Part shown: piece after piece, positions 2,174 to 58,489 of the stretch
Position numbering within the stretch: position 1 is the first letter of the stretch
Layout: each line of letters opens with the position of its first letter
NCBI GenBank assembly: GCA_963514005.1
Contig: OY740827.1
Span: 3,286,001-3,350,000, forward strand
Direction: 5' to 3'
DNA from: Raja brachyura
Taxonomy: Eukaryota
Length of the DNA stretch: 64,000 nucleotides
Position numbers and translations under genes: made by a program
Notes under the pieces: model-generated
The model's input: the letters and a program-made list of their open reading frames with translations, nothing else
The model's database searches: none
Told to the model about the DNA's origin: nothing

Positions 2174-2210
2174 CAGTCTGAAGAAGGGTCTCGACCCGAA
2201 ACGTCGCCTA
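2174..2210 (+). ncRNA. Minimal hammerhead-ribozyme-like motif in PLE 3' UTR
   Basis: CTGAAGA-A-GGGTC-TC-GACCC-GAAA-CGTC: conserved CUGANGA/GAAA/UH core, stem II, and palindromic ACGU in place of helix III. Helix I is weak. Confidence 0.7.
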
Positions 2211-2270
2211 TCTCCTTCGCTCCTTAGATGCTGCTGCACCCGCTGAGTTTCTCCAGCTTTTTGTGTAACC

Positions 2271-4640
2271 ATTTTTCTACTATCCTTTCTTATGTTTTGG
2301 TTGATGTGATTATAATTGGCCCCATACAACGTTGATATATTTTTTGTTATATGTACCCCTAGGTATTTGATTGATTTTGAATCCCATTGAATATTATACT
2401 TTTGTTTGATTTCTTCTGGAGGAGGACAATTAAATAGGAGTGTTTGAGTTTTTGAAATATTCACTTTATATCCTGCATAAAAATTAAATTTCTCTATGAT
2501 CCTGATCATCCTTGGAAATGAGGTGTTTACTTCCGTGAGATACATCATTACATCTGCAAAAAGGCCAATTTTATGTTCTCTGTCTCTCATAGTTACTCCC
2601 CTCAGTTCCCTATCTTGACAAATTGCTTGAGCCAATGGTTCCATATATATAGCAAACAGGGCTAAGACAACATCCCTGTCTCATTCCTCTTCCTAACACA
2701 AATCTCTCAGTTAAGGACCCATTCACCTTTACTCTTGCAGTAGGTTGCTGGTAAATTGCTTTAATAACTTGAATTGAATCCTCGGGAAAGCCAAATCTTT
2801 CTAGTGTTTGATATAAGAATTCCCAATTAACCCATCAAAAGTCTTTTCAGGACAGCACACATACTTTCCTTTTGAATCTTGTGTATTATATGTTGGGTTC
2901 TTCTAATACTGTCCTGTGTTTGTCTGGCTATTATAAATCCAGTCTGGTCTTCATCAATTAAATCTGGCATGAACTTTTCAAATCGTTTGGAGATAATTGA
3001 AGAATATAATCTGTAGTCCACATTTAGAATTGATATCGGTCTGTAGTTGGTACAATTTTCCTTGTCTTTGTTCTCTTTGGGGATTAATGTTATAATTGCC
3101 TCTTTCCATGACGGGGGTGTCTTACCTTCTTTGATAATCCAGTTAAAGGTTCTCAGAAGAAGTGGGTTCAGCTCATTCCGAAATATTTTATACCATTCTA
3201 TAGGGAAACCGTCGCTGCCTGGGACCTTGTTTGATTTCATCCTACCAATTGTCTTCTCTATCTCCTCCAGTGATATTTCTGCTGTGATTATTTTATTTTG
3301 TGTCTCTCCAATACAGGGCAGATTTTTTTGTACTTAAAAAAAGTCCTCATTGATTCCCCATCTACTGTAGAGATTTGTGTATATCATTCTTTATAATATT
3401 CCTGGAAGATATATTCTATTTCTTTTGGATCACTCTTCAAATTCTGTGGACAGGGGTCCTTAATTTTGTGTATGTTGTTGTCAGCCTGTTGTTTGCGTAG
3501 CCTTCGGGCAAGTATTTTAGTGGATTTAGGGCCAAGCTCATAATGTGCCTGTTTTACAAATCTTGCTTTTTGCTCTCCACCTCTTGACCCAATATTCCAT
3601 CCATTTGTCCCCTCAAATCTTCTATTTGCTTATAAGTTCTCTGGTCCTTATTATTTTTGTACTTCCTTTCTAAATCCTTCAGGTCTGATATCAACTTATT
3701 ATATGTTTTCATTCTGGCCTTTTTAATATGTGATGCCCTAGCTATTAACCTACCTTGTATTACAGCCTTCAATGAGTCCCATGGTATGGACGGGTCCACC
3801 TCCCCATTGTCATTCTCCTCTAGATACGTTTTGATTTCCAATATAATATCATTAACAGTTGCTTTATCATTCAGTATTCCAACATTTAATTGCCACAGTG
3901 TGTTTTTCCTTCTACTGTCCATTTGAATTGTTAAGTATATGGAATTATGGTCTAATACATCTGCCACACCAATTCTGCAATCCGTTACCCTAGAACAGTC
4001 TTCTTTCTGCATTAAGAAATAGTCTATTCTGGAGTAAACTGAGTGCGGTATTGAGTAATGTGTATAGTCTCTTTCTAGAGGGTGAAAATTCCTCCAGACA
4101 TCAAGAAAACCAAATTCTTAACAGGTAATGTTTCGTAGTTTTGTTAACTGGTTATTATTCTTCTTTTTACTTGTCATATCGAGCCGATAATTCAGTACAA
4201 CATTCAGATCCCCCCCCACATATACAAATTCCTTCTGCTTCCATTGCAATATCAAATAGGGATTTGAAAAAATGTTTATCACTATATGGCGTAGCATAGA
4301 TATTCACCAGTCAGGATATTATTATCAACTTTACCCTTTACTATGATATACCTCCCTTCTTTGTATTTTATTTCTTAAAACATTTCGAATTTAACTGAGT
4401 TTGAAATCAAGATTGCCACTCCTCTTTTATGACTACAAGTTTGTGAGCTATAATATGTGTTTTTATATCCAAATCTTTTCAGCTTCTCATGCTCTTGTCG
4501 CGATAAATGGGTTTCTTGTAAGAAAATAATATGCATCTTCACTTTTTTCAATTTATTCATGACTTTAGCCCTCTTAATCGGATTACTCAAACCATTAACA
4601 TTTAGAGACATCAGCTTAAGTCCTTGACATTGCATCATTA
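2271..4640 (-). pseudogene. L1 ORF2 (endonuclease + RT), multiple frameshifts
   Basis: [40 protein letters not shown](D), IKYLGV motifs spread over several frames. Confidence 0.88.
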
Positions 4641-5167
4641 CACTTAATGTGATTGATTTCACTGTATCCCCTCAACTCAACACCAGAACCATTCTGAACA
4701 ACAAACTAAAACATATGAACAAACAAAAGTGTTTTACCTGGCAAAACAAAACATATATGGACTCCCAAAAAAGGGTATTCTCTCTCCTCCATCGATCCCA
4801 AATCCCTTTGTAAATTGACAGGGGGGAAGCCTAACACTAAGAAAGGGCCCTCTCCTAGACAAGGGGGGTACCCCTCTGTGGTCCCTCCATTCATTCTAGC
4901 TCTAATATTTCGTTAATCTCCCTAACAGTCGGATTTATCTGATACAGAAAGTTGTATTAAATCAACATTATTTACACTCACTTGAGGTCTGTGATGCTTG
5001 GTGATATTTTTAGAACCAGGCTTATAAACAGATTTGTCTATGAATATACATATCTATACACATATTTGTAAACTTAGGATTCCATAAGAACTCCGTATTC
5101 TAACATATTGTAGCGGAAGTCACTGTGTTATCCATGTCTATGCGTACCTTCATAATCATATCACAGT

Positions 5168-6251
5168 TCAAGCATGAGTCTTTTGTTGTAATGCTTGAAG
5201 GCGCTCCCATGCCCATCTGACTATCTCTGATTCTCCGTGTCTCTCGACGAGCTGCCGTCGTGCTGTTCGGTGGAGTTGTTCACGCAGTGGCGGTATGTCC
5301 GTGTCTCCCCGTGGCTCTTCCACTTTATAGCCTCTCTGTTGTAGCTCTCGCACGGCTTCCCTTGCGTTGTTGTAGGTTTGGTGTCGGCTTTCCCAGTGAA
5401 TACATATCTTGGTAAATGGTGTCTGAAAGCAGATTCCTTCCTCTTTTAGGATGCTTTTAACATGTTTGCATGCCTTACATTGTTGTACTACAGCGGTAGT
5501 ATAGTCATGGTCAAAAGACAGCATTCGTTCACCAAGTTGGATCTTCTTTTGCCATGCCTCTTTGAGAACCATCTCTTTAACTTTAAACTGGAGAAAGTGG
5601 ACAATTATGGATCTCGGAGGGGAGCTGGGGCTTGGTTTCTGTGCCACGGATCTGTGTGCTCGTTGAATCTGCAAATCTGTAATTTCTGGGATTGACATTT
5701 CACTTCTGAGCAGTTTCGCCACAAACTGAGGTACTGAGCTACCTTCCACACCCTCTGGCACACCGTATATCTGCAGATTATTTCTTTTGGATCTGGACTC
5801 GATCGTTCAATTTGTCGACAAATAACTTCTGGTCTTTCAGTGTTTCTTGGTGTATGGTGTTTGCAGCGACACTCCATGTTTCCAGCTCCACTATTCGGGT
5901 GGCGGCTTCTTGCGGTTTTTGTTCGTCTTGTATTGCTTGCGCATTCGCTGCCATCTGATGATTAATTTCAAGTTTAAGTTCGGCCACCTCTTCTCTCATA
6001 TCCTGCTTGAAATCGTCTTTGAATGATGTGAAGTCCGCTTTTAATTCTCTTTTCAAGTTGCTGATTTGTGTACTTACGCTTTTTAATCCCTCATGGAGGG
6101 CCTCTGTTGCATCATCTCCACCAGCCTGTTTGTTTTTGTCTTCGTCTGTGTCACTTCGGGCCTGACCTTCTGTTTCTTGCTTTTCTAGCATCTTTTCTTG
6201 CGACTTTCTGCTCTTTGTTTTGACTCCCCCACTCATACTGTACTCATTCAA
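5168..6251 (-). pseudogene. L1 ORF1 (coiled-coil/RRM/CTD), frameshifted near 5780
   Basis: Coiled-coil N-terminal half, then PEGVEG, IQRAHRS, PRSIIVHFL, FDHDY motifs. Confidence 0.85.
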
Positions 6252-6360
6252 ACTTAAATACTCGCTAACTTTGAATTTAGGGGAGGTTTATTTATCCGAC
6301 TGTATGGAGCTCTCTGTCTAATCAGCCACCATGCTCTGCCGCCTACCGGAAGTGTAACTT

Positions 6361-8757: not shown

Positions 8758-8789
8758 CAAGAGGTTCTTCATATTTATAGGGGTTCAGA

Positions 8790-9115: not shown

Positions 9116-9511
9116 ACATTATTGAATGTATTCATTATTGATTGCGGAAGTATTCATACCCCTTGAACTTTTCCACATTTTGTCACGTTACAACTACAAA
9201 CGTAAATGTATTTTATTGGGATTTTATGTGATAGACCAACACAAAGTGGCGCATAATTGTGAAGTGGAAGAAAAATGATACATGGTTTTCAAATTTTTTT
9301 ACAAATAAAAAACTGGAAAGTGTGGCGTGCAAAAGTATTCAGCCCCCTTTACTCCGATACCCGTAAATAAAACCCAGTGCAACCAATTTCCTTCAGAAGT
9401 CACCTAATTAGTAAAGAGTCCACTTGTGTGTATTCTAATCTCAGTATAAATACAGCTGTTCCGTGAAGGCCTCAGAGTTTTGTTAGAGAACATTAGTGAA
9501 CAAACAACATC

Positions 9512-10530
9512 ATGAAGCCCAAGGAACACGCCAGACAGGTCAGGGATAACGTTGTGGAGAAGTTTAAAGCAGGGTTAGGTTATAAAAAAAATCCCGAGCT
9601 TTGAACATCTCACGGAGCACTGTTCAATCCATCATCTGAAAATGGAAAGAGTATGGCACAACTGCAAACCTACCAAGACATGGCCGTCCACATAAACTGA
9701 CAGGCCAGGCAAGGAGAGCATTGATCAGAGAAGCAGCCAAGAGGCCCATGGTAACTCTGGAGGAGCTGCAGAGATCCACAGCTCAGGTAGGAGAATCTGT
9801 CCACAGGACAACTATTAGTCGTGCACTCCACAAATCGGGCCTTTATGGAAGAATGGCAAGAAGAAAGCCATTGTTGAAACAAAGCCATAAGAACTGCCGT
9901 TTGCAGTTTGCCACAAGCCATGTGGGGGGACACAGCAAACATTTGGAGGAAGGTGCTCTGGTCTGATGAGACCAAAATTGAAGTTTTTGGCCTAAATGCA
10001 AAACGCTATGTGTGGCGGAAAACTAACACTGCACATCACCCTGAACACACCATCCCCACTGTGAAACATGGCGGTGGCAGCATCATACTGTGGGAATGTT
10101 TTCTTCAGCAGCGACAGGGAAGCTAGTCAGAGTTGATGGGAAGATGGATGGAGCCAAATACAGGGCAATCTTGGAAGAAAACCTGTTAGAGTCTGCAAAA
10201 GACTTGAGACTGGGGTGGAGGTTCACCTTCCAGCAGGACAACGGCCCTAAACATACAGCTAGAGCTACAATGGAATGGTTTAGATCAAAGCATATTCATG
10301 TGTTAGTATGGCCTAGTCAAAGTCCAGACCTAAATCCAATTGAGAATCTCTGGCAAGACTTGAAAATTGCTGTTCACTGACGGTCTCCATCCAATCTGAC
10401 TGAGCTTGAGCGATTTTGCAAAGAAGAATGGGCAAAAATTTCAGTCTCGAGATGTGCAAAACTGGTAGAGACATACCCCAATTGACTTGCAGCTGTAATT
10501 GCAGCAAAAGGTGGTTCTACAAAGTATTGA
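9512..10530 (+). pseudogene. Tc1 DDE transposase, frameshifted and with stops
   Basis: MKPKEH start, [39 protein letters not shown], ends TKY*. Confidence 0.92.
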
Positions 10531-10724
10531 CTCGGGGGGGCTGAATACTTTTGCACGCCACACTTTTCAGTTTTTTATTTGTAATAAAATTTGGAAACTT
10601 TGTATCATTTTCCTTCCACTTCACAATTATGCCCCACTTTGTGTTGGTCTATCACATAAAATCCCAATAAAATACATTTACGTTTGTGGTTGTAACGTGA
10701 CAAAATGTGGAAAAGTTTAAGGGG

Positions 10725-11026
10725 TTCTTGGTTCTTCTTGGTTACTTAGTCCTCCAAAATATTCCAACTGGAATTTAAACTGGAGGTGGTGAAGGGAGGG
10801 GTTTAGCCAGAGAGGGTTATTGGGAAGAAAGTGCCACTTTAAATTTAGTTGCATCTGGCTGGGCAACCGTGGCTTGGTGGAGATTATTCCATGCTTTAAT
10901 AGTGCATGGAAAGAACGAATTGCTGTACACATCTGTCTTTGAGGCTGGGACCACAAATTGGATCGAATGCCCTCGTCTGCTCCTAATTGGTTTGGAGTTG
11001 GTGTCGGACTTGTGATCTATGTCTAG
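10725..11026 (-). mobile_element. CR1-group LINE 3' end inserted into the right Tc1 TIR
   Basis: Minus frame RSRRGHSIQF...NSFFPCTIKAWNNL with an (AAGAACC)-like tail. It splits AAGGGG|TATGAATAC of the TIR. Confidence 0.7.
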
Positions 11027-11154: not shown

Positions 11155-13318
11155 CTAGACTAAATGGGACCCGTTGGGTCCCAGCACCACACGGGAGGGC
11201 TGGTTACCCAATGCAATATTCCACCTCTCCACAAATTCCAATATTGCTGGCCAGTGGGGGGGGGGGGATTTCTGTTGTGCTAGTATGGGTGTTGTGGGCC
11301 GAAGGGACTGGTTTACAGAGGGATAGTATGGACATTGTGCTGAATGGATTATTGGGCTGACACTTCAGTCACTTACAGCTTGTGGGCTGGCAGTTCACTT
11401 ACTCACGGCTGGTGGTCTGGCAGTTCGGTCTCTGACAGCTGGTGGGCTGGCAGTTCACTTACTGAGCTGGTGGGCTGGCCGTGCAGTCACTCACGGCTGG
11501 TGGGCTGGCAGTGCAATCACTCACAGATGCATCTAGCCTGGCAGTATCGTTAGAAAAAAATTGCAAACCGTAAGTGGGTTTTGAATTACATTTTACTCAG
11601 ATGCAAGCCAAGGAGTGGCATAATTGTTAGCTGTTAATTGGACATAATCAACCTCAGCAAATTGACAATATCCTATTGAAAGGAAGTGGGTGTTTAAGGT
11701 GTCAGGACATTTTATTATTTGATTTTCCACACACCACTCGTAATTCTGGAGATTTTATTATTGATAAATTTAGCTTCAGAACCGTTTCCTTTTTGCATGT
11801 AAAAACCCACTTCAGAAGCATGGGCGATTAAAAAATTTTACAGCCAGACTTATCACTTCTGAAACTTTTTAGATACCAAAGGATTCAAGAAAAAACACAA
11901 ATAAAGCCTTACTGTTGATGAAATGCAGTGAGCAAAGGCGATAATTCCCAATATTTTCAATCTCGATATCCGCACGGCCAATGTTCGCCAAGCACTTTAG
12001 CTGTTGTTGTCCCTTCAGCTCTCGCTTCTCTTTACCTTAATTTCTCTTCACTTTCGGAATTCTGAAGTAGGATAGATGTCTCTGTGTATGAAGAAGGGTG
12101 TCGACCCAAAACGTCGCCTATCTCCTTCGTTCCTTAGATGCTGCTGCACCCGCTGAGTTTCTCCAGCCTTTTGTGTACACTTGATTTTCCAGCATCTGCA
12201 GTTCCTTCTTTAAAACTAGATGTCTCTCACGGTTATCCTGACTTCCACAATTATTTACAGCGCAAAAATTCACGATTTTGGCAGTTTTTAACAGGTAGGA
12301 AAGTACGCGTTTCGTGTATTAACAACATATGCCAGAAGCTGCAATGTCCTCCAGATGGCTTGAGCGGTTCCGTTCACACACACACACAGACTGAAACACG
12401 CACAGAAACACAGGCTCACACACACACTCACTCACACACAACCAATACTAAAATGCCAAGTAAATTCAGAATGTGGTGAACATACAGTGTGTAAACCAAA
12501 TGATTCAAACGTTTAAAGCCTCCTGTCGAGGCTGCTGCTGAAGCAAAAACGTTCTTTAAATAACGTCCAACAAACACACTCACCACAGCAGTAAGCTCTC
12601 TTGAATTATTCAACGACCTCTTCACTCTGTGCCTTCTGTAGTCAGCGCCATCTTGCCACGAACCGGAAATGACGCACTCATTGCCATCTTGCAGCTAACC
12701 AGAAATTACGTCATCGGCGCCATCTTGCCACTAAGCGGAAGTCACGGAATGAGCGCCAATTTTGCAATTAAACACAGTCCTGATCCAATAAAATGTTTAT
12801 TCACGCTTTATCCATCAAAAAGCTGTTGAAAGCCCTTTAAAAGCCAAGCCAATTGGGCAAACACTTTGCAAGCCCACAAAACGCATTTTATGAAAGCCCT
12901 TTAAAAGCCAAGCCAATTGGGCAAACACTTTGCAAGCCAACAAAACACATTTTCTGTAAACCACATCGAGGGGACTCACTGTGGAGTAGACGTGCGTTCA
13001 GTGTTATTCGCACCTCAGAGAGCCGTGACCCTCTCGCTTCCTCCGTCACGCAGAGACTGTGTGAGGCACAACACTTCCGGGTTTTATAGTCCCCCCCCCC
13101 CTTCCACCAGCGGGGGCAGCAGAGAGAATGGTAAAATCTTTTAAAACATTAATAACTCTCTAATTTTTCATCAATGAGAAAAATCCTCCAGTCCAATCCG
13201 GTGGAGGGGGACTCTGAGCGAGGTGGCCAAAAATGATGGCCGTAAGCAGCGGCCTTCTCTCGGAAATCACGAAACAGAAAGTCGAAAGTGGTCAATTTCT
13301 TGGTTTTAGTCATATAGA
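11155..13318 (-). mobile_element. Non-autonomous Helitron
   Basis: Minus strand reads A|TCTATATGACTAAAA ... hairpin TGGGACCC-AAC-GGGTCCCA, then TTTAGTCTAG|T. Both ends are homologous to 50290-51798. Confidence 0.85.
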
Positions 13319-14936: not shown

Positions 14937-15128
14937 CTACCCCTTCCCCTGCTTGGATTGGAACCAGAGCTCAGCGTATTCCACCCCCTCGCCACTGTGC
15001 TCCGTGTCTTCGCTCCTCGGCAGCTCCCGCAGGCTTGCGTACACGACCGCTCGCTCTTCCTGCTCTCCCGATTCCCCTCCTCCTTTCAGCTCCTCTGGGG
15101 CCGGCCCGTCCTCACCACTCCCCGCATT
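14937..15128 (-). CDS. Siglec-like gene: terminal exon with tyrosine motifs
   Basis: cttccctttccttccag acceptor with a tactaaac branch-like site; encodes VVYASL and VEYAEL, then TAG. Confidence 0.85.
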   Translation of the reverse strand, partial: NAGSGEDGPAPEELKGGGESGEQEERAVVYASLRELPRSEDTEHSGEGVEYAELWFQSKQGKG

Positions 15129-18100
15129 CTGGAAGGAAAGGGAAGCAGACGGGCAGTTGTGGGTTTAGTACAGAGCAGTGCACGGTGTCGCCGGCATTGA
15201 ACTATCATCAACGACAAGGTTCACAACTCCTGAACTCCCATAGACCCAGATTCAGCGATATTGTTTATGTTCTCCTCTCACACACTCTCACTCACACACT
15301 CTCTCATTCACTCACTCGCTCTCATTCTCTCTCCCCCTCTCCTCTCTCAATCACGCACTCTCTCTCACACTCGCAGTTTCACATTCTCTCTCTCTCCCTT
15401 GCACTGTCTTCCTCTCTCTCAAACTTTCTTACACACTCACACCAACTCTCTCTCTCTCTCTCACCCTCCTACACTCTCACGTAGTTAGATAAATCAATAT
15501 TCATACCCCGGTTGCTGAACACTAATTCTGCTTCCCATTCCCACACTGACCTTTCTGTCCTCAGTCTCCTCCACTGTCAGAGTGGGGCTAAACGCAAATT
15601 GGAGGAACAGCATCTCATATTTCGCTTGGGCACCTTACAGTCCAGTGATATGAACATTGATTTCTCTCACTTGAGGTGGCCAGTATATATATTTTTTCTC
15701 TCTCTCTCTCTCTCTGTCCCACCCATGTCGCACTAGCTTCTCATTTTCACCCAACAAACCGCTAACAGTGGACTGTTTCCTTTATCATCGTTACTTTTAT
15801 TTGCATATCTTTCATTCATTGTTCTGTATCTCTCTACATCATCGTCTACATAGAGTCATAGAGTGATACCGTGTGGAAACAGGCCCTTCGGCCCAACTTG
15901 CCCACACTGGCCAACGTGCCCCATCTACACTAGTCCCACCTGCCTGTACTTGGTCCATATCCAGAATTAGTGTACCACTACCACACCTGGGTCAGTCGGA
16001 CCATATATCCCTGCTTTTAATTCCTGCATATGCCCCCCTCAGGAAAACCGCTCCTCCCATCACAAAGACCATCACAACTTGGCCTGATGGTGCATCTCAG
16101 CAGCTGCAGGACTGCTTCGACAGGACCAACTGGGATGTGTTTGAACACCGGGACCTGGAGTTGTTCACAGACAGTGTACTGTGTTACATTAAAAATTGCA
16201 CGGACACGGTCACAGTGGACAAACAAATCCGGGTCTACCCCAACCAGAAGCCCTGGATGACCCGGGAGGTCCAGCGGCTGTTAAAAGAGAGGAACACTGC
16301 TTTTAGATCTGGTGATAGGGCTTTATACAGCACGGCCCGAGCTAACCTGAAGAGAGGCATCAGAGAGGCCAAGTCAGACTACAGGAGGAAGATAGAGGAC
16401 CACCTGGACAGTAACAACAGCAGGCAGGTGTGGCAGGGGATCCAGTATCTCACCAATTATAAGACAAACCTTGGAGCTGCTGAGGGTGACGCCTCGTTGG
16501 CAGAGGAGCTGAACCTCTTCTTTGCTCGCTTTGAAGTGGAGCCACCCGAGACAGCCAGAACACACCATATGGTCCACAGTAGCCTAACCCTCACGATAGA
16601 GGAGCATGAGGTGAGGCGCACACTGCGGGCCATCAATCCAAGGAAGGCTACTGGACCCGACGGCGTCTCTGGACGCGTGCTGAAGGACTGCGCAGACCAG
16701 CTGGCTGGAGTCTTCACGAGGATATTTAACCAGTCTCTGGCCCAGTCCACTGTCCCACCCTGTCTGAAGTCCGCAACCATAGTCCCCTTGCCCACAAAAC
16801 CCCACATTTCCAGCCTCAACGACTACCGGCCAGTCGCACTCACACCAGTGGTGATGAAGTGCTTTGAAAAACTGGTCCGGGGTCATATCACATCACTCCT
16901 GCCCCGAAGCTTTGACCCCCACCAGTTTGCGTACAGAGCGAATAGATCTACAGAGGACGCTGTAGCCACAGCTCTCCATGCTGCACTGTCCCACCTAGAG
17001 CAGCGGGGAAGCTATGTGCGAATGCTCTTTGTGGACTACAGCTCTGCTTTTAATAGTATCCTTCCCCACAAACTGGGGGACTTGGGACTTCCACAATCCA
17101 CCTGCATGTGGATAAATAGCTTCCTGTCGGGCCGCAGCCAGAGAGTCAGAATGGGCCATCACACATCCACGGCCCTCAGCCTCAGTACTGGCTCTCCACA
17201 AGGCTGCATGCTGAGCCCCCTGCTCTACACCATCTACACACATGACTGTACCTCCGCCCATCACAGCAACACCATTGTCAAATTTGCAGATGACACTACG
17301 GTGGTGGGGCTCATCTCCGGGGGGGACGAGTACGCCTATCGGGATGAGGTGGAGCAGCTGACAGTGTGGTGTGGAGAAAATAACCTGCTCCTGAACACCT
17401 TAAAGACCAAGGAGATAATAATAGACTTCAGGAAGAACAAAACAGAACTGGTACCACTAATCATCAGAGGGGACTGTGTGGAGAGGGTGGCGGATTTCCG
17501 CTTCCTGGGAATCCATATCGAGGAGGACCTGACGTGGAGCGTGAACACCTCTGCGCTGCTGAAAAAGGTCCAGCAGAGACTGCACTTCCTGAGGGTGCTC
17601 AGGAAGAATAACATCACACAGAGACTGCTGCTGTCCTTTGAGAGCATCCTAACATACTATATATGCGTGTGGTACACCAGCTGCACAGCGGCTCAGAGGA
17701 AAGCGCTCCAGAGGGCCATTGACAACACCCAGAGGATTGTCGGCTGCCCTCTCCTTACCTTGGAAGACTTACACAGTTCCCGCTGCATCAAAAAATCCCA
17801 GAATATTATAAAGGACATTTCCCACCCCGGACACTCCCTGTTTGAACTGTTGCCGTCAGGCAGACGGTACAGATCTACAAGGACAAGGACAAACAGATTT
17901 AAAAACAGTTTTTACCCCACTGCTATAAAGGCACTAAATGTAGCCGCCAAGGAACGGGGGGGACTAAGGGATTGTGGTTGGTACACTGTGAAATCGACAG
18001 AAGGATGTAGGGTTGGGTGTATATGCGTGCCATTTTCATATTTCATATTTATTTTAGTTATTTATCTTTTTTAATATTTTACCTTGTATGTATCGTTAGC

Positions 18101-42059: not shown

Positions 42060-42720
42060 GAAAACATAGAATGATAGAAAATAGGTGCAGGAGTAACCCA
42101 TTCGGCCCTTCCAGCCAGCCCCGCCATTCAATATGATCATGGCTGATCATCCAGAATCAGTATCCCGTTCCTGCATTCTCCAAATCCCTTGATACCGTTA
42201 GTGATAAGAGCTAAATCTAACTCTCTCTTGAAAACATCCAGAGAATTGGCCTCCGCTGCCTTCTTTATTCGAGAATTCCACAGATTCACAACACTCTGGG
42301 TGAAAAGGTTTTTCCTTGTCTCAGTCCTAAATGGCCTACCGCTAATACTTAAACTGTGACCGCTGGTTCTGAACTCCCCCAACATCGGTAAATTTTTTCC
42401 TGCATCTAGCTTGTCCACTCCCTTAAGAATTTTATATGTTTCTATAAGATTCCCTCTCATCCTTCTAAATTCCAGAGAATTCAAGCCCTGTCGACCCATT
42501 CGTTCATCATATGTCAGTCCTGCCATACCGGGAATTAACCTGATGAGAATGTGTAGGAAAGAACTGCAGATGCTGGTTCAAATCGAAGGTCGACACATAA
42601 TTCTGGAGTAACTCAGTGGGACAAGTAGCATCTCTGGAGAGAAGGAATGGGTGACGTTTCAGATTCAAGACCCTTCTTCAGACCTGGTGAACCTACGCAG
42701 CACTGCCTCAATAGCAAGAA
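42060..42720 (-). mobile_element. CR1-clade LINE 3' fragment interrupted by a hammerhead mini-element
   Basis: Homologous to 62423-62950; insert at ~42545-42683. Other CR1 pieces at 18930-19830, 20040-20560, 23255-23740, 25130-25630, 26850-27250, 37120-37510, 40790-41140 and 48165-48860. Confidence 0.8.
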
Positions 42721-45422: not shown

Positions 45423-46430
45423 TAGCAATGTTACAACATTTTGAGATTTAGAAAATCAAGCCTGCAATTTATCCCATCAGATAAAGAATAAAAAGAAGAT
45501 TAATTTGACACCTAATTTACTTTCATATCTTCAGTATTGAGAAAGTTATGGCCATTTTCATACTCGGAAATTAGCATCTTGCTCCCCATTGCCTTTCAAT
45601 TGACTTAACTCAAAAGCTGTGATCTGGAAAAGTTAAAAGCCCATAACTTTCTTAAAAATTAAGAGAACTCAATGAAATTTTCAGTTATTATAGATTGAAG
45701 CATTCTGAAACAAATATTAAACAATCTTACTTGGATTACCTGAAATTAAAGCATATAATTAGTTAGTTATCTAATTGTAGCTAATTACAAAATTCAATGA
45801 GTAGATCTAAACATCTATCCATTTCTTAAGAAAAGATAAACTTTTTTTTAATTGCCTAAGTGTCCAAATAACATTCACACAATAATCCACAATATAACAT
45901 AATTTTTAAATCTCATTTTCATGAATTTCTGGGCCAAATGGAAGGTATTTAGTGTTTGATTCCTGTAAATTAATGGCCATTTAAATCAACTAGCGAGTGG
46001 GTTTTAGTGGAATGCGGTGGATTGGAACGTTGCGGTTAGCGGTGAAGTGGGCAGGAAAAATACTGTTTGTTCATACATTCATTTCGCAACATAAAAATAT
46101 TATTAAAGCCTCCCGAAAAACCAACTTTTAATATAAAAATAAACTATTTACCTTTTTTCTCCCCTACGGAAAATCCTTCCTTTTGTCAGCTCTCACGGCT
46201 TTTGAAGGTGATTTTTAAATTACTCTAGTTAACAAATAATTTAATTTAAAAATACCTTCATTGATGAAATGTCGGAGCGATTTTTCTTCCGCAACTAAAT
46301 CGCCCGACATTCATCATTCTGTCGAAAAACGGCACTTTAAGCCCGCCCCCCTCTGAAAGGCGCCAAAGTCGCGCACACGGGGAGCGGCAGAACTGCAGCG
46401 CCGCTAAAGGTAAGTTTTGCAACATACCTA
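45423..46430 (-). mobile_element. Second copy of the 7-bp-TSD TIR element, nested in the MULE-like element
   Basis: TSD ATACAAG (45416-45422, 46431-46437); reverse complement of 28921-29955. Confidence 0.87.
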
Positions 46431-47029
46431 ATACAAGGTTAATTAACGTGTGTATTTCATGTATTACATGTATAAATCGTTCTTATTTCCCTGTCCTAAC
46501 GGCCTTTGTTTTAGCCGGTGATTCCATCTATTCCATCCCTCCCTCGCAAAGATGAGGGGTATCAATTTGAGTGCACGTGTTTGAATGGATGCAAGCGGCA
46601 TGTCCAGCTTCCCTCCTGGGCGCGCAATACACGAAGCCGATGAAATGACACAACTGCCACACCAAAGATAGACACAAAATGCTGGAGTAACTCAGCTGAA
46701 GAGGCAGCATCTCTGGAGAGAAGGAATGGGTGGAGTTTCGGGTCAAGACCCTTCAGACGCACTCTGAAGAATGGTCTCAGCACGAAACGTCACCCATTCC
46801 TTCTCTCCATAGATGCTGCCTGTTTTGGCTTGGGTGCGTTCCGCAAACACCGAGACAGTAATAAATAAACCATCTGTCCCCGTGGCCGGGGTGAATCACC
46901 CTGGTGTGGGTGTCAAAGACCGGGGGTCAAGGGGGGGGGGGGGGAGGGGAAATCACCCTGGTGTGGATGTTGGGGTCCGATGGCGGTGCATCGCGGTCAG
47001 TAACAGTGGGACGCTCCTGCGGGTGGAGA

Positions 47030-47262: not shown

Positions 47263-50200
47263 CGGGAGCGTGGGATTCATTTTCCCACACAAGCCATAGG
47301 TGACTGGGCAAACTGAACCCAAGCACCAAGTTGAAAGCGGCCGAAGGTGTGCATTCCTCGGGACAGCCCCCACTCTCCCACGGCCACCCTCCGTGGGCTG
47401 TGGGTCGGGTGGAGCGGAGGTATGGGGCAATGTTCATGTCTTCACAGTGATGTGATGGACGCGGAGGTCTGGATCAATCACTGACAACTCCTGCCCCCCC
47501 GGCAACATCAAGTCCGTTATTGGACTTTTCTGTTGAGCGACAGTCAGTCCGTTGGCCTGTAGGCGCCGCCGCCTTGCGGGTAGGTGGCATTTCGACTGAG
47601 CAGCCATTCGTTAAGTTTGCTTTTAGGTGACGCAGCCTTTTGGTTTTTGCCGTTTAGGCGTCCCGCCCTTTCGGTTAGTTCGCATTTAGGCGTCCCATCC
47701 TTTCGGTTAGTAGGCGTTTTGTTTTCGAACTCTTTCGGTTCATTGCCGTTTTGGCCTGGTTTCTATTCAGTTCTTTGGCTTCGGCTTCTTTGCTTCAGCC
47801 TCTTGTCTGCCGGCGCTGCGTCCGGGTACCATTTTATACATCTTTATAAGATTACCCCTCATCTTCCTGCGCTCCAAGGAATACTCATGCTCTCCCTATA
47901 GCTCAGACAATAGAATCCTGGCAACATCCTCATAAATCTTCTCTGTTTGCTTTCCAGCTGAAAACATCTTTCCTATCACACGGAGCCCAGAACTGAACGC
48001 ACATATTCTAAATGCACCTCATCAACGTGTTATACAACTGCAACATGACCTCCCAACTTCTACACTGTGCGGACTGTGTGAGCAGGTGTGAACGGGTCAA
48101 AGCCTGGCAAGTGATAAGTGGATGCAGGTGAGGGGGTGATCGGCGGATGAGTAGACTAGGCGGGAGAGTCCAGGACCAGAGGCACAGCCTCACAATTGAA
48201 GGACGTTCTTTTGGGAAGACGATAAGGAGGAGTTTCTTTAGTCAGGGGTGGCAATCTGTGGAATTCTTTACCACAGAACGCTGTGGAGGCCAAGTCCATA
48301 GATATTTTTAAGGTACGAGATAGATAGATTCTTGATTAGTACGGGTGTCAGGGGTTATGGGGAGAAGGCAGGAAAATGGGGTTGAGAGGGAAAGATAGAC
48401 CAGCCATGAATGAATGGCGTTGATGGGTCGATGGCGCAATTCTGCTCCAAACATAGGGTCATAAGGAATAGTAGTAGAATGTTCTTTAATTCTGAAGGTA
48501 TGACCTCTAGTCCTAGACTCTCCCACTAGTAGAAACATCCTCTCCACATCCACTCTATCCAAGCCTTTCACTAATCTGTATGTTTCAATGAGGTCCCCCC
48601 CTCATTCTTCTAAACTCCAGCGAGTACAGGCCCAGTGTTAACAAATGCTTATCATAGGTTAACCGACTGATTCCTGGGAACATTCTTTTAAGCCTCCTCT
48701 GGACCATCTCCAGAGCCAGCACATCCTTGCTCAGATACGGTGCTCTAAATTACTCACCCTATTCCAAAAGCGGCCTCACCAGCGCCTTATAGAGCCTCAG
48801 CATTATATCCCTGTTTTTGTATACAAGCCCTATTGACATATATGCTAGCATTGAGTTTGCTCTCTATAGTACCTTTATCACTATAACTTATGAAGTGGCA
48901 GAAACTCGAGAGGCCCAGTGAACTCTTGATAAATGAGGAAGTAGACAGAAGTTGTGACAGGAAATTTAGTGCTAAAAATGAAAATGTTCTTTCACAGAAT
49001 GAAGGGAAATGTATCGCAGAGTTCTCCAAAGCTGAGGGTTCAAAACACTCCCTTTATTCATCGGGAAAACAAATGCAGGAGGAACTCAGCGGATCTGGGG
49101 GGGGGGGGTAAGACACAAAGGGCTGGAGTAACTCAGCAGGACGGGTAGCATCTCTGGAGAGGAGGAATGGGTGACGTTTCGGGTCGAGGCCCTTCTTCAG
49201 ACAGATGGTCAGGTGAGAGGGAAACAAGAGATATGGACGGTGATGTAGAGAGATATAAAACAAATGAATGAAAGACATGCAAAAAAAGTAACAATGGTAA
49301 AGGAAACAGGCCGTTGTTAGCGGTTTACTATGTGAGAACGAGAAGCTGGTGCGACTTGGGTGGGGAAGGGATGGAGAGAGGGGGAACAGAGGGGTTAGTT
49401 GAAGTTAGATAAATCAATATTCATATCAGACCGAGAGGGGGCAAGGGAGGCGGTGCCAAAGCATCGCCATTAGTCGGCAGGTCCGTCCGACAGAACTAAA
49501 ATCTGTCATGAAGTGGTCCGTTATCACGAGGGTTTACGGTTGAGAGGGTAAATTTAGTTGAAGATGGAACCGCAGATGCTGGCTGAAACCAAAGATAGAC
49601 ACAAAAAGCAGGAGTAATTCAAAGGGTCAGTTTAGTTTAGTTTAGAGGTACAGCGCGGAAACAGGCCCTTCAGCCCACCAAGTCGCAACGACCATCAATC
49701 ACCTGTTCACACTAGGTATGTGTTTAGTTTAGAGATGCATCGTAGAGACAGGCCCTTCGGCCCACCGTGTCTGCGCCGACCAGCAAATATTCTCTGCATT
49801 AGTGCGGCAGCGCGGTAGCGTAGCGATTGAACTACTGCCTTACTGCGCAGGTTCAATCTTGGTTATGGGTGTTGTCTGTACGGAGTTTGCACGTTCTCCC
49901 CGTGGCGGCGTGGGATTTCTCTGGGTGCTTGGGTTTCCCCCCAAACTGCAAAGACGTACAGGTTTGTGGGTTAATTGGCTTGGTATAAATGTCCAATTGT
50001 CCCCAGTGTCCTGGGGCAGTGTTCATGTGCCAGTATCGCAGGTCGCCGTGTACTCGAAGGGCCGAAGGGCAGGTCGCCGTGTACAGGGCTGAAGGGCCTG
50101 TTTCCGCGCTGTAACTCTAAGCTAAATTAAACTAACAAATAACACGACACAAATAAATTGCTCTCACATTTATATATGAACACCAAAAAAACCATGTTTA

Positions 50201-50664: not shown

Positions 50665-51041
50665 GGTTTGAAGTAAAAAGGCACTGCCTGCAAATGTTTG
50701 TTTGGGTGCTTTGGCTTGAAGTTAAAAGGCACTGCCTGCAAATGTTTGTTTGGGTGCTTTGGCTCGAAGTGAAAAGGCACTGCCTGCAAATGTTTGTTTG
50801 GGTGCTTTGGCTTGAAGTGAAAAGGCACTACTGCAAATGGTGGCTTTGGCTTGAAGTGAAGAGGCACTACTACAAATGATGGCTTGCGTGCTTTGGCTTG
50901 AGGTGAAGAGGCACTACTGCAAATGGTGGTTTGGGTGCTTTGGCTTGAGGTGAAGAGGGGCACTACTGCAAATGGTGGCTTGGGTGCTTTGGCTTGAGGT
51001 GAAGAGGCACTACTGCAAATGGTGGCTTGGGTGCTTTGGCT
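50665..51041. repeat. 48-bp minisatellite A inside the Helitron
   Basis: About 8 copies of TTGGCTTGAAGTGAAAAGGCACT..TGCAAATG..TGGGTGCT. Confidence 0.9.
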
Positions 51042-51294
51042 AACTTCCTGTTTGCACTGTATATTGATTTTAGATAAAATGCTACCACTTACGGCTGTGG
51101 TTTTTGGCCATCTTACTTAGTTCCCCTCCGCTCAGCATGTGCAGAGGATTCTTCCCATCAATGAAAAATAAAAGTGTTATTAGTGTTTAAAAAATGTTGA
51201 TAATCTCTCTCCTGTCATGAACACCACACCTTTTCCGGTGGGAGGGGGAGGGGTTATAAAACCCGGAAGTTTGGGTGTGGCTCAGTCTCTGCAT

Positions 51295-51590
51295 GAAGTG
51301 GTATGAAACTGCACTTGAATTTGGTGGCCTTGGATCCAGCTTGAAGGGTTATGAAGCTGCACTTGAATTTGGTGGCCTTGGATCCAGCTTGAAGTGTTAT
51401 GAAGCTACACTTGAATTTGGTGGCCTTGCGCCCTGCTTGAAGTGGTAGGAAACTGCACTTGAATTTGGTGGCCTTGCACCCTGCTCAAAGTGGTAAGAGA
51501 CTGCACTTGAATTTGGTGGCCTTGCACCCTGCTTGAAATGGTAGGAAAATGAATTTGAATTTGGTGGCCTTGCACCCTGCTTGAAATGGA
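51295..51590. repeat. 48-bp minisatellite B inside the Helitron
   Basis: About 6 copies of GAAGTGGTA.GAAACTGCACTTGAATTTGGTGGCCTTGCACCCTGCTT. Confidence 0.9.
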
Positions 51591-54500
51591 ATTTCAAGGA
51601 ATAGCCATGAGTTAACTGCCAGCCCACCAGCCATGAGTGAGTTGCCAGCACATCAGGCTTGAGGGACTGAGCTGCCACCCCAAGAACCCATACCAGCGCT
51701 CCAGAAAGCCCCCCCACACACCACCAATATTGGAATTGGTGTAGAGGTGGAATATTGTGTCGTGTGAACATGGGACCCAAAGGGTCCACCTAGTCTAGTC
51801 CTTTATATTTATATTGAGCCAGTTGTACCAATTTACATTTATACCTAGCCAATTGACCTACAAAACTGCTGTGGGAGGAAACCGAAGATCTCGGGAAAAA
51901 TACACGCAGGTCACGGAGGGAATGTACAAACTCCCTACAGACAAGCACCCGTAGTCAGGATCGAACCCGGGTTTCTGCCGCTGTTCCACCTTGCCTGCTG
52001 ACCCAATGCACTGAATGGTTTAACCCAAAGTACGGGATTCAAGAACCAGAGGACTTGGGTTTAACGTGAGCAGATAAAGATTAAATAGAAACTTGAGGAG
52101 CAACTTTTTCACTCACTAGGTGGAGGGTATGTGGAACGAGCTGCCATTATATGCATTAATTGGCTTGGTAAAGAAGTAAAAATTGTTCCTAGTATAGAAT
52201 CGTGTTAGTGTGTGGGGATCGCTGGTTGGTGCGGTCTCAGTGGGCTGGATGGTCTGTTTCCACGCTGTATCTCTAAACTAAACTAAACCATTAACAGTGT
52301 AGGAAGGAATTGCAGATGCTGGTTTAAACCGAAGATAAACACAAAATAACTCATTGAGACAGGCATCATGTCAAGGAATGGGTGACGATTCAGGTCGAGA
52401 CACTTCTCCAGACTGAATCAGGAAACGAGAGATATAGATGGTGATGTAGAGAGATATAGAACAAATTAATGAAAGATATTCAAAAAATATTTTGATGATA
52501 AAAACGATGATTAAGGAAACAATGCTGGCTACGTGCTGGCTGGGAACGAGAAGCTGGTGCGACTTGGGTGGGGGAGAGATGGAGAGAGAAAGAATGAAGG
52601 GGTTACTTGAAGTTAGAGAAATCAATATTTATACCAGACTGAGAAGGAATGGGTGACGTTTCGGATCGAGACCCTTCTTCATTGACAGCATTAATATGCA
52701 GCGGGATCCAGGAGTCCAGGTTCACAGCTCAATGAAGGAGGCAGCATGAGTAGATAGGGTGCGTGGCATTGAGAGAGAGCCGGTTTCGGCAGTAACCACT
52801 CTGACATTCACAGTAACACGGTGAACTCGGGTGCTTTATTCTATTTACAGCGGCAAAAATGTCCAGGACTACATGGGGGCGCTGTCCCTCACCGTCAGAG
52901 CGCATGTGTGAAGATGCTGGCGATCTGTGGCTGAGTGGGTTTGCTGATGACACCAAGATTGAAGGAGTTGCAGACAGTGAGGAAGCTGTCGGAAAATACT
53001 GCGGGCTGAAGATTAGATGCAGAAAGGGGTGGAGAAATGGCAGACGGAGTTTAATCCGAGCAAGAGTGCGTTGTTGCGATTTGGGAGGATGAAGGCACAA
53101 GGAGAGAGTGTAGAGTTAATGGCAAGTCCATTAACAGCATTGATTTTTTTTAGTGTGGAAACAGGCCCTTCAGCCCACCTAACCCTGACCGACCATCAAT
53201 CACCCGTTCACACAGTTCTAGGTTCAGTTTAGATACAGCGTAGAAAAAGCTGACAAGCGATCCCCGATTGCCCGCACTATCCCACACACGCTGGGGACAA
53301 TTTACATTTATACCAAGTCAATTAACCAACAAACCCGTACGTTTTTGGATTGTGGGAGGAAAGTGAAGATCTTGGGGAAAGCACATGCAGGTCACTGGGT
53401 GAACGTACAAACTCCGTACAGACAAACACCCGTAGTCGGGATCGAATCTGGGTGTCTGGCGCTGTAAGGCGGTAGCTCTACTGCTCCACCAACGACTACG
53501 GTTGCTGTCTGGGGCCTGGATCCGTGCTATATATCTAAACCAAATATAGAACGAGTGTGTGAACGGGTGATTGCTGGTCGGCACAGAATGGGTGAGATTA
53601 AAGGGCCTGTTTCCACGCTGAATCTCTGAACTAAACTAAAACTAAACTAGCCGGGACGCATCCCACTGTCTTTTTTTCTGTCTTCATTCTTGTCTTCTCC
53701 CAGTCTGTCCATCGGGCGAGAATGCCTGGGTTTCCGACAGGGGCACTGATGAGAGAATACTGTGCTGTGGGTGGGGTGGTGAGGCAGGAGCACTGCGCTG
53801 TGGGAGGGATAGTGAGTAGGGAGCACTGCCGGAGGAGCAGTGAGGAGGGAGTGCTGTGTTGTGGAAGTGATGATGATGAAAGAAGCACTGTTCTGTGAGA
53901 ACAACTGTTCACCCCTTACTCACCGACACCACCTGTCCGTCAGTCTACCTCACTTCCCCTCAAATCCTCCTCCCTCACAACACAGATCGTCCTCCCGTCG
54001 GTTCCTCACAAGTCCCTCCTCCCAGGGTCTCAACCCGAATTGGTGCCTATCCATGTCCTTCATAGATGCTGCCTGACCCGCTGAGTTACTCGAGCATTTA
54101 AAAAAAAATTGTAATCCATCACGGTGGCGCAGGGGTAGAGTTGCTGCCTTACAGTCAATGCAGCGCCGGAGACCCGTGTTCCATCCCGACTACGGGTGCT
54201 CTCTGTACAGAGTTTGTACGTTCTTCCCATGACCTGCGTGGATTTTCTCAGAGATCTTCGGTTTGCTCCCACACTCCAAAGACGTACAGGTTTGCGGGTT
54301 AATTGGCTTGGTAAATGTAAAAATTGTCCCTAGTGGGTGCAGGATAATGTTAATGTGCAGGGATCGCTGGTCGGTCCGGACCCAGTGGGCCGAATGGTCT
54401 GTATCTCGAAATAAAAACAAAACATCTGCAGTTCCTTGAGTCTTGCCTCCATTTCCTGACGATGCCCTCGCCCTCCCTCCTACCCACACTCACTAGGGTC

Positions 54501-54951: not shown

Positions 54952-56685
54952 CTGGAAAAACAAACATTGAACCTGATACATGCTGGTGCATAATCTGTAA
55001 TCATCAGATATTAATTCCAAAACAGATTTTAAAATATCATTTATTTATTTAATATCGGCAATTCCAGGATATTGAATCACAACTTAAAATTAACAGGTAG
55101 ACAAAAGTGCTGGAGAAACTCAGCGGGTGCGGCATTATCTATGGAGCGAAGAAGTAGGTGATGTTTTGGCCCAAAACGTTGCATATCTCCTTCGCTCCAT
55201 AGATGCTGCCACAACCGCTGAGTTTATCCAGCACTTTTGTCTACCTTCGATTTTCCAGCATCTGCAGTTCCTTCTTAAACTTAAAATTAACAGGTAACTT
55301 CTTCAGCATAAACACTTCTTCAGTATTTCTTCACTCAGAATATAGTGATTTTTTTTCTAGGGTTGAAATAAATCTGTTGTTAATTGCATTGCAGCAAGAT
55401 CAAAATATTATTGATTCAAATAATTAATAAACCATATCACAGCATAAGAGGAAACTGCATTTAAAGTGCAGGTTAGGAGTGAGCTGCCTGAAAGGTCCAG
55501 ACCCATAATGTTGCCTGTCAAGATTCAAGATTGCAGCTTCCAGCCAACAGACATCAGTGTCTACATTTCTGGCAATGAAGACAGTGACTATCATGGGCTT
55601 CCCCCACACTGAAGTCAGGAGCAGCACTCAGTGGCTGCGACAAAACCACTACTTAAAAAAAGAATAAATTGTCCGTGGTAATCAGCAAGCCAGGCAGCAG
55701 CTGTGGAGGTAGAAACTGAGTGAATGTTTCAGGTTAATATTCTTTCCTCACAGCTGGGGAAGTTGCCAGATGGAGACAGACAACTAGAAGGATGAGGGAG
55801 ATGGTCTAAATGGCCTCCCAGATCAATATTAATGTCCGTGATCCACTCCAGTGCCCAGGGAACTCATCCACTGCTCACTGACACCAATTCCTGGGGTTGT
55901 GATGGTCTGAGAAGGAGCAGCAGCATCTTCCCTGTTCCCAGGCCCCTGAGAGGACATTTATCCGGCATCTTCTGCCCGTTCTCCATGTCAAAGCTCCCTG
56001 GAGTCCCACCTCTGGGCCCTGCGTCCCAGACATGGTCTTGTCTCCTTCAGCAGCTCCTCGGTCTCCCTTCCTGAGCTCAGACACCCACTTCTCCTCACCT
56101 CACCTACGCTCACTTCTCCTCACCTACACCTTGACTAAACCGCTCACCTCAATTAAACCCCTCACCTCAACCAAACCCCTCGCCTCACTACTAAAGGTAG
56201 ATAAAAATGCTGGAGAAGCTCAGCGGGTGAGGCAGCATCAATGGAGCGAAGGAATAGGTGACATCTTCAGTCTGAAGAAGGTTCTCAACCCAAAACGTCA
56301 CCTATTCCTTCGCTCCATAGATGCTGCCTCACCCGCTGAGATTCCCCAGCATTTTTGTCTACCTTCGATTTTTCCAACATCTGCAGTTCTTTCTTAAACT
56401 TCACGACTAAACCTCGCCTCGACTAAACTTCACCTCACACCTAACCCTCAACTCACTAAACTGTGCCTCGACCAAACTTCACCTCAGCTAAACCTCAACT
56501 ACATTTCACACCTCACTAAACATTACTTCGCTTCAACTAAACCTCACATCTACTAAACCCCACACCTCACTACTAAACTAATCCTCACAGCTGAACCTCA
56601 CTTCGATTAAACCCCTCGCCGCAACTAAACTCCACCTGAACTGACCCTAACCGTCACCTCAATAAACTCCACCTCGCGACTAAAC

Positions 56686-57010
56686 TATTTATAGCCCCTC
56701 CCCCCCCCCGGCCGTTGGCGGCGCCTCACGTGAGCGGAGCGGCCCCACCCAGAGCGCGGGTCACGTGGACAACTCCAGCCCTCGGCGGGAAAAGGCGCTT
56801 CTCACCCCCTCCCCGGCGCCTGCGCCGCTCTCCACGTTCGCCCCCCCCCCCCCCCCCCCCCGGGCGAGGATGGCGGGAGACTCGCGACCAAAGATTCTAC
56901 AGCAGCTCCTCCAGTATCTTTGCTCGCGACGGCTTTTGGCGCCTTTTCCCGCCGAGGGCTCGAGTTGCCCACGTGACCCGCTGGGGGGGGGGGCGGGGAG
57001 AAGCGGCGAT
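56686..57010. promoter_or_regulatory. CpG-island-like, partly palindromic candidate bidirectional promoter
   Basis: Very GC/CpG rich; three CACGTG E-boxes (~56728, ~56762, ~56969); GGGGCGGGG box; TATAAATA on the minus strand at 56686-56693. Confidence 0.6.
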
Positions 57011-58489
57011 TAGTTGAGGTTTAGTTGTGAGGAGTAGTTTATTAGTGAGGTGTGAGGAGTAGATGAAGCCAGGCGTTTAATCGAAGCAATGTTTAGTGAG
57101 GTGTGAAATGTAGTTGAGGTTTAGCTGAGGTAAAGTTTGGTCGAGGTGATTGAGGGGTTTAGTTGAGGAGGTAAAGTTTAGTCGAGGTGAGGATTTAGTC
57201 GAGGTGTGAGGTGAAGTTTAGTCGAGGCACAGTTTAGTGAGTTGAGGGTTAGGTGTGAGGTGAAGTTTAGTCGAGGCGAGGTTTAGTAGAAATGCAGATG
57301 TGACGTTTGAGACCTGCAGAAGCTGGGAAAATCGAACGTAGACAAAAATGTTGGGGGAACTCGGCGCGTGAGGCAGCATCTATGGACCGAAGGAATAGGT
57401 GACATTTCGGGTCGAGACCCTTCATCAAACTGAAGACGTCACTTATTCCTTCGCTCCATTGATGCTGCCTCACCCGCTGAGTTTATCCAGCATTTTTGTC
57501 TACCTTTAATAGTGAGGTGTGAGGTTTGGTTGAGGCGAGGGGTTTAATTAAGGCGATCGGTTTAGTTGAGGTGTAGGTGAGGAGAAGTGAGCGTAGGTGA
57601 GGTGAGGATAAGTGGGTGTCTGAGCTCAGGAAGTGAGACCGAGGAGCTGCTGAAGGAGACGAGACCATGTCTGGGACGCAGGGCTCAGAGGTGAGACTCC
57701 AGGGAGCTTTGACATGGAGAACGGGCAGAAGATGCCGGATAAATGTCCTCTCAGGGGCCTGGGAACGGGGAAGATGCTGCTGCTCTTTCACAGACCATCA
57801 CAACCCCAGGAATTGGTGTCAGTGAGGAGTGGATGAGTTCCCTGGGCTCTGGAGTGGATCACGGACATTAATATTGATCTGGGAGGCCATTCAGACCATC
57901 TCCCTCATCCTTCCAGTTGTCTGTCTCCATCTGACAACTTCCCCAGCTGTGAGGAAAGAATATTAACCTGAAACATTCACTCAGTTTCTACCTCCACAGA
58001 TACTGCATGGCTTGCTGATTACCACTCACAATTTATTATTTATTACAATAGTGGTTTTGCAGCAGCCACTGGGTGCTGGTCCTCACTTCAGTGTGGGGGA
58101 AGCCCATGATAGTCACTGTCTTCATTGCCAGAAATGTAGGTGCTGATGTCTGTTGGCTGGAAGCTGCAATCTTGAATCTTGACAGGCAACATTTTGGGTC
58201 TGGACCTTTCAGGCAGATCACTCCTGACCTGCACCCTAAATGCAGTTACCTCTCACGGTTTATTACTTCTTTGATATGGTTTATTACTTCTTTGAATCAA
58301 TAATATTTTGATCTTGCTGGAATGCAATTAGAAAAAAAAGTTACTATATTCTGAGTGAAGAAATACCTAATTTCTATCCTGAAGAAGTTACCTGTTAATT
58401 TAACTTGTGATTCAATATCCTGGAATTGTCCTATATTAAATGAATAAATGATATTTTAAAATCAGTTTTGGAATGAATATCTGATGATT

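Follow-up and report, generated by a model that had tools for sequence, protein, structure and literature searches.

Hammerhead motifs scattered through a skate genome: probable short insertions of a Penelope-like retrotransposon

We analyzed a 64,000-nt stretch of the genome of the skate Raja brachyura (contig OY740827.1, positions 3,286,001 to 3,350,000; hereafter, the window), across which motifs resembling hammerhead ribozymes are scattered. Their source is a young, very abundant Penelope-like retrotransposon with a hammerhead in its terminal repeat. We consider it likely that the motifs are this terminal-repeat hammerhead and that the short copies arose when reverse transcription started internally and ran off the 5′ end of uncut RNA. 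The observations underlying this reading are the identity of the short copies with the end of the element, their two 3′ ends, the clustering of their 5′ ends, the presence of target duplications, and neutral decay. Ribozymes of this kind have been described before; the novelty lies in their number here and in the implications of the copy ends. Signed positions below are counted from the predicted cut site, with C17 at 0 and C3 of the core at −27.

A first-pass annotation of the window, made from the sequence alone, had listed about 20 hammerhead-like sites, four of them with intact cores. The motif is present at 22 of the 22 positions given there, and the core is exact at the four sites claimed, 2178 (+), 24914 (+), 41538 (+), and 44804–44777 (−); the degenerate copies at 26630, 36428, 41892, 42653, 52384, 52655, and 57401 lie on the minus strand. 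A profile hidden Markov model (HMM) found 28 core-spanning copies, three of them weak (E near 3e-10), and additionally tail-only pieces, including two arrays, and seven head-to-head pairs. The motif is thus dense, as annotated, with about one copy per 2.3 kb instead of the estimated one per 3 kb. The hammerhead motif search that had been proposed gave seven descriptor matches in the window and none in each of 30 dinucleotide shuffles. An Rfam scan of the window at E ≤ 5 returned no hammerhead family match; its microRNA-like matches were rejected, inverted repeats being their source. Most copies lack an open reading frame (ORF), as had been noted: one copy carries a 5′-truncated ORF, and ORF ends occur besides only at 36895 and 41188.

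The claimed origin from a Penelope-like element is supported by the core at 2178, which closes a 5′-truncated ORF with a GIY-YIG domain. The whole truncated copy spans 735–2270 (+). Its ORF (735–1947), with a short inversion at the 5′ junction (696–764), encodes the end of the reverse transcriptase (RT), a C-x4-C-xx-C linker, and the endonuclease. The ORF is followed by the 3′ untranslated region (UTR), which forms the upstream part of the pseudo–long terminal repeat (pseudo-LTR; 1948–2177), by the exact core (2178–2205; C3 at 2178, predicted cut after C17 at 2205), and by a tail to the short 3′ end at +65 (2206–2270), equal to the 5′ UTR of a next unit. In Pfam, the GIY-YIG domain of this copy scores E 2.5e-4, just under the curated cutoff, and RVT_1 has no match in it.

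Longer copies are found elsewhere in the genome. An ORF search scored 106 of 152,502 candidates, and all 106 were 98 to 100% identical, with open frames of up to 1,204 amino acids (aa). Four of 12 long copies examined have the whole ORF; in one of them, L061, it encodes 1,192 aa when counted from the first Met. In another long copy, L064, a hammerhead stands at both ends of a full unit, with 4,207 nt between the cut sites. The unit of the element is 4.2 kb long, its 5′ UTR is the sequence past the cut site, and the ORF begins with an ATG at +136. The 1,192-aa ORF carries DKG, PIVS, and YIDD motifs and, before the endonuclease, a linker of the CX2-5CxxC type (C-x4-C-xx-C at residues 1059 to 1067). 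Since such a linker defines Neptune and Nematis in the available text of Craig et al. 2021 (PMC8557442), this single motif marks the element as a candidate member of Neptune or Nematis rather than of Penelope/Poseidon. One truncated Penelope insertion (433-aa frame, 100% identity) is found at positions 2804312, 3092335, 3286775, and 3510465 of the contig; four identical insertions on one contig suggest a recent segmental duplication of the region.

The anatomy of a minimal type I hammerhead, as claimed, is borne out by the core, the helices, and the cut triplet. All four exact window copies have the CUGANGA...GAAA core and an NUH cut triplet, an extra base between A9 and G10.1, the G10.1-C11.1 pair, a helix II of 4 bp by complementarity, and a palindromic ACGU helix III without loop 3. 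The minimal hammerhead ribozymes (min-HHRs) of metazoan Penelope-like pseudo-LTRs, as described in the available text of Cervera and De la Pena 2014 (PMC4209133), share the CUGANGA core, the extra base between 9 and 10.1, the G10.1-C11.1 pair, the 4-bp helix II with a 4-nt loop, the ACGU palindrome, and the lack of loop 3; they, too, occur in both terminal repeats, with most copies single and dispersed. The closest min-HHR row found is that of an Acropora digitifera Neptune element in the supplement to that paper; no shark or skate term occurs in the supplement file searched. Helix I has about 2 bp, as expected from the first-pass annotation, with a predicted pairing probability of 0.0, compared to 3 to 5 bp in the published min-HHR rows examined. 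Because the D. virilis variant has a helix I of 2 bp as well, this would be a short variant and not grounds for exclusion from the min-HHRs. In the predicted monomer ensemble, helix II has P ≤ 0.01 in the four exact copies. Modeling of the monomer and of the co-fold did not favor the active hammerhead or the dimer form and gave other structures; the shuffle z-scores of four window copies were 0.24, −2.44, 0.38, and 0.34.

The genome-wide count supports the claim of a very high copy number. Across the 2.70-Gb genome, the exact 28-mer core was counted 53,619 times and its reversed control 0 times. In 47 blindly chosen 10-kb stretches we found 9 exact cores and 105 core-spanning copies (223 per Mb). 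When these stretches were pooled with the intron stretches described below, 317 core-spanning copies in 1.19 Mb were counted, which by extrapolation corresponds to ~0.6 to 0.7 million copies genome-wide. The numbers reported in the available text of PMC4209133 are ~4,000 for coelacanth and ~9,000 for Xenopus.

The ends of the copies carry most of our argument. In 78 young copies sampled without selection on the 5′ end, 21 starts lie upstream of −40, 39 at −33 to −27, 10 at −26 to −20, 6 at −19 to −2, and 2 at −1/+1; half of the copies thus start 0 to 6 nt before the core. The 3′ ends of the same copies fall into two groups, 51 at +62 to +69 and 19 at +99 to +103. Older subfamilies have the same 5′ peak (218 of 455 HMM matches at −40 to −20, mode −31). 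Genome probe counts fall from 54,599 (+3 to +33) and 44,399 (−24 to +10) to 12,552 (−36 to −6) and 5,865 (−65 to −35). Genome-wide, breaks were found in at least 11,029 copies at −29 and at least 12,357 at −30, compared to 188 at +1, where a stricter filter of three bases was applied. The template was thus mostly uncut, as breaks at −29/−30 far exceed those at +1. No common sequence was found next to the junction in 49 upstream flanks. Many short copies have their own target duplications of 8 to 18 bp, often with extra bases before the element, in a set partly selected by the base preceding the start. Contigs from most of eight public sequencing runs have loose ends at the −31 to −29 boundary; being assembled contigs, these data cannot show RNA ends or expression. 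At 6 places among 30 loci with an ORF start, a unit beginning at −33 to −30 follows a piece ending at +157 to +202, as expected if the enzyme left the template end and re-primed.

In the mechanism that we propose, most copies would be 95- to 130-bp insertions made by the element’s own RT. By analogy with the Poseidon element of the anole, RT would start internally, 62 to 67 or 99 to 103 nt past the predicted cut site, and would run off the 5′ end of uncut RNA, 2 to 4 nt before the core. This RNA end, at −31 to −29, would most likely be the transcription start; the bases at −32 to −28 resemble an initiator. After run-off the enzyme would jump back onto the RNA and re-prime, and RNA that reads through tandem units would give rise to the longer copies. 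Cutting by the ribozyme would be rare and would require a dimer or the help of a protein. An internal promoter in the pseudo-LTR has been described for D. virilis Penelope (Schostak 2008, PMC2377424, available text), and, according to the available text of Frangieh 2024 (PMC11167929), internal RT starts produce the tail and uncut RNA is the main substrate. An 8-bp stem pairing about +19 to +26 with +77 to +84 is predicted in most subfamilies with a mean probability of 0.66 to 0.99 (L064:3460-3600, long-tail copies); it may be the RT-binding element.

Several points weigh against run-off from a fixed RNA end. The genome probes differ in how stringent they are and in which subfamilies they reach. 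Of the single full-length copies, the two that we examined begin at +7 and −11 and not at −30. The few junctions located exactly at the cut site, considered below, imply that not all template was uncut. An extra G as a sign of a cap is mixed between start positions. At −29 starts, the extra bases end in G in 11 of 12 simple copies and, counted by eye, in ~62 of 100 listed; such a G can also arise by slippage onto an internal GTCT repeat or from inverted junctions. No G excess was observed at −30 starts (~36 G, 44 A, and 20 T of 100), and none was apparent at −31. The cap hypothesis is thus supported at −29 only, and we do not claim that the RNA was capped. A splice-acceptor origin of the boundary, considered since a pyrimidine tract is followed by CAG at −31 to −29, was also rejected: most copies retain part or all of the CAG, and there is no common upstream exon.

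The 5′ boundary could alternatively be a stop and not an RNA end: the RNA would reach further upstream, and RT would be stopped at −31 to −29 by structure, by a bound protein, or by fold-back at a short palindrome near the core start. Head-to-head pairs are indeed common, many of them joined at or near the palindrome, and in RNA starting at −30 the 5′ purines of the young subfamily are predicted to pair with +88 to +101 (mean probability of 0.87 in 40 copies). However, this pairing is weaker in older subfamilies (0.04 to 0.47). A structural block would moreover be expected on entry into the stem, near −17, and not past it, yet only 4 of 78 starts are at −19/−18; and the majority of short copies, instead of being fold-backs, stand alone between unrelated flanks. 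We regard a halt of RT as unlikely.

The first-pass annotation had attributed the motifs to a separate non-autonomous ribozyme family. In this case, short copies would be a SINE- or retrozyme-like family of ~100 to 130 bp, transcribed from its own master copies and mobilized by the Penelope protein. Short copies are more numerous than long ones (49 of 78 starting at −33 to −20), often have target duplications of their own, and contain the putative promoter; retrozymes have also been proposed as pseudo-LTR derivatives (bioRxiv 10.64898/2026.07.22.740005, available text). Yet the young short copies align with the end of the autonomous element as far as its two 3′ ends, which they share, with no diagnostic change visible by eye. 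Their 5′ ends, instead of being fixed, spread over the 14 nt from −33 to −20. Short copies occur in every tail subfamily seen, and the same boundary recurs across subfamilies, for which a separate family would need repeated independent origins. Whole-core tandems are rare: 384 cores include 26 direct pairs within 330 nt, most with unrelated spacers, and there are few true tandem units of the retrozyme kind, with a hammerhead in each. The short copies are probably not a family of their own, judging from these sequence comparisons, and we find its existence quite improbable.

As to cutting, the 188 matches with a break at +1 compare with a rough average expectation of ~200, a figure without a neighboring-position control. 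Two arrays of 58-nt tail units, at 20700–20997 (+) and 26377–26564 (−), consist of units that start at +1 and have no core, and three arrays spaced 61 to 65 nt were present among the first 100 +1 matches. Among tandem junctions whose downstream start lies at −10 to +25, 4 of 10 fall at 0 to +2 (p about 0.007), and 3 of 7 short upstream units end at −1 to +1 (p about 0.002), which makes them as long as the 5′ cleavage product. These counts are small and post hoc, come partly from old copies, include one case that may be a plain local duplication, and have no neighboring-position control; they hint, weakly, at rare cleavage. We tentatively raise a further possibility, itself rather doubtful: in this vertebrate lineage the hammerhead could be the first 31 nt of the Penelope mRNA and act as a switch that is seldom triggered and removes the 5′ end, with hundreds of thousands of insertions resembling strong-stop products recording the transcription start and a few junctions recording both cleavage products.

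Conservation of the core was assessed among and within subfamilies. The comparison of core and flanks that the first-pass annotation had suggested gave a divided answer: the core is constant between subfamilies, while single copies decay. Across six subfamily clusters, none of the 11 non-CpG core positions is variable, compared to 20 of 60 tail positions (p = 0.027). Within subfamilies, divergence is 7.9% at non-CpG core positions, 10.3% in the tail (raised by subfamily mixing), and 24% at CpG core positions, and the commonest exact core is present in only 28 of 285 copies. A core that is constant between subfamilies and decays within them implies that constraint acts on source elements; besides catalysis, promoter function or the binding of a protein could account for this constraint. 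Selection on the ribozyme is probably confined to source elements. The scattered copies decay neutrally and are probably inert. The contigs of the eight public runs contained no variant at ≥10% across 2178–2204.

We also considered an effect on host pre-mRNA, the first-pass annotation having placed several copies in Siglec introns, some of them in the sense orientation. The Siglec-like gene is real (about 14950–35390, −): it has a V-set exon at 34983–35390 with an FRVEF arginine motif, a C2-set exon at about 27850–28135, an Ig exon at about 24530–24815, a transmembrane segment at about 21130–21230, and a tyrosine-motif exon at about 14950–15120; two cytoplasmic tyrosine motifs are present, and the signal-peptide exon was not located in the window. 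Its introns hold one inverted pair and seven solo core-spanning copies. Six of the seven are antisense, a ratio drawn from too few copies to count, and the sole sense copy (26630) is degenerate, so that the introns contain no intact sense copy. We next considered 729 kb from 11 myosin genes, in 74 stretches whose orientation was set by exon matches, with 27 further intron stretches left out. No orientation bias was detected in them: core-spanning copies numbered 105 sense and 110 antisense, intact ones 15 and 14, and in the 54 stretches surely located between exons the counts were 74 and 83. Two LINE controls were also unbiased (125 versus 124 and 23 versus 29), which means that the power of the test may be insufficient in this genome.

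An effect on host transcripts thus found no support. That dispersed copies self-cleave in host pre-mRNAs, including that of the Siglec gene, by dimerizing within or between transcripts appears very improbable: exact cores are numerous, several copies can share an intron, and dimers of minimal hammerheads show weak cleavage in vitro (PMC4209133, available text), but sense copies are not depleted in myosin genes, Siglec introns lack an intact one, helix II is barely predicted to form and co-folding gives no dimer fold, and copies decay at CpG core positions.

Several known systems resemble this one, and the comparisons below refer to the available text of the papers cited. Single dispersed min-HHRs from truncated elements have already been described (PMC4209133). 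Poseidon of Anolis carolinensis (PMC11167929) likewise has an optional 30- to 40-nt tail, which results from a choice between two sites past the ribozyme at which RT can start. In Poseidon, however, the ribozyme lies over the start codon and not in the 5′ UTR upstream of the ATG, whereas the skate element has the additional C-x4-C-xx-C linker; that text describes no accumulation of 5′ ends where the ribozyme begins. Neptune-clade elements with an endonuclease (PMC8557442) share with the skate element a single ORF, DKG, RT, the CX2-5CxxC linker, a C-terminal GIY-YIG domain, partial tandems, inverted 5′ copies, and the optional 30- to 40-nt tail; the skate element, placed here by motif only, differs by its long N terminus (1,192 aa in all). 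Non-LTR retrozymes (PMC7229834; bioRxiv 10.64898/2026.07.22.740005), reported in one chondrichthyan genome, are also noncoding, with a type I hammerhead and pseudo-LTR kinship. They form tandem arrays with a ribozyme in each unit, whereas the skate copies are solo or head-to-head and the 58-nt arrays of the window lack the core. Our literature search found no report on this element in cartilaginous fish and none on run-off at the ribozyme, and neither this copy-number scale nor the 5′-end pile-up was found described.

The remaining window copies illustrate the forms described above. Short copies on the plus strand include a young one at 12087–12213 (−26 to +99) with an 11-bp target duplication and one at 20609–20997 followed by five 58-nt tail units, four of which were mapped as starting at +1 of the cut site. 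Antisense copies in Siglec introns lie at 18540–18705 (degenerate), 21639–21747 (short and degenerate), 24906–25043 (short, with an exact core and the long 3′ end), 25682–25862 (with helix II changes), and 27525–27637 (short and near intact), all on the plus strand; the only sense solo copy of these introns, at 26377–26818 (−), is degenerate and accompanied by three 58-nt units from +1. A truncated copy with the ORF end and the exact core at 41538 occupies 41188–41582 (+), and an older one with the ORF end, 3′ UTR, and degenerate core occupies 36325–36895 (−). Further minus-strand copies are found at 42550–42684 (short, −30 to +100), 44715–44811 (short, exact core, 11-bp target duplication), 49111–49445 (with the 3′ UTR and a near-intact core), and 52297–52681 (two degenerate copies side by side). 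A short degenerate copy at 54024–54099 (+) and an inverted pair at 55096–55280 were absent from the earlier list.

The other inverted pairs are located at 31720–31914, 41791–41977, 43332–43520, 46654–46823, 56189–56399, and 57311–57510, the last being a duplicate of 56189–56399 inside a 944-bp inverted duplication. The pair at 31720–31914 is head-to-head and is predicted to fold as a long hairpin that buries the core, as are inverted pairs in general; such pairs would yield long double-stranded RNA. At 43332–43520, the recurrent −31/−12 junction is flanked by a 14-bp target duplication. This junction, joining −31/−29 to −12 via a short shared word, was also observed at loci L041, L044, L096, L108, and L245.

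Other elements are present in the window. A broken element with an RT match lies inside a Siglec intron at 30398–34187; its pieces look to us like RNase H and a tyrosine recombinase, the last without a Pfam match, and we take it to be DIRS-like. An element with 190-bp inverted ends at 9158–10725 is presumably Tc1/mariner-like. RVT_1 matches were found at 2138–5806 (−) and at 15867–18074 (+), the latter with a 735-aa RT frame; we assume the former to be L1-like and the latter a LINE, and 62520–63341 (−) to be a CR1-like 3′ ORF piece. There are two inverted duplications, of 944 bp (93%; 55447–56390 and 57310–58253) and of 668 bp (95%; 29288–29955 and 45423–46090), as well as 90-nt and 48-nt tandem arrays at 38383–39102, 50678–51671, and 61936–62413.

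The role of the hammerhead in Penelope-like elements is an open question, as stated in the available text of PMC8557442. In Raja brachyura, its copies reach tens of times the published coelacanth or Xenopus counts, and, as no orientation bias was seen, host introns seem to tolerate intact cores by the tens of thousands. With its intact ORFs of 1,192 aa, an RNA start predicted to lie at the ribozyme, two sites of priming, and rare junctions at the cut site, the young element yields exact, testable predictions. If the hammerhead is the rarely cut 5′ end of the Penelope mRNA, then its insertions would preserve, for the whole genome and at base resolution, a fossil record of where transcription starts, where RT is primed, and where the ribozyme cuts in vivo.

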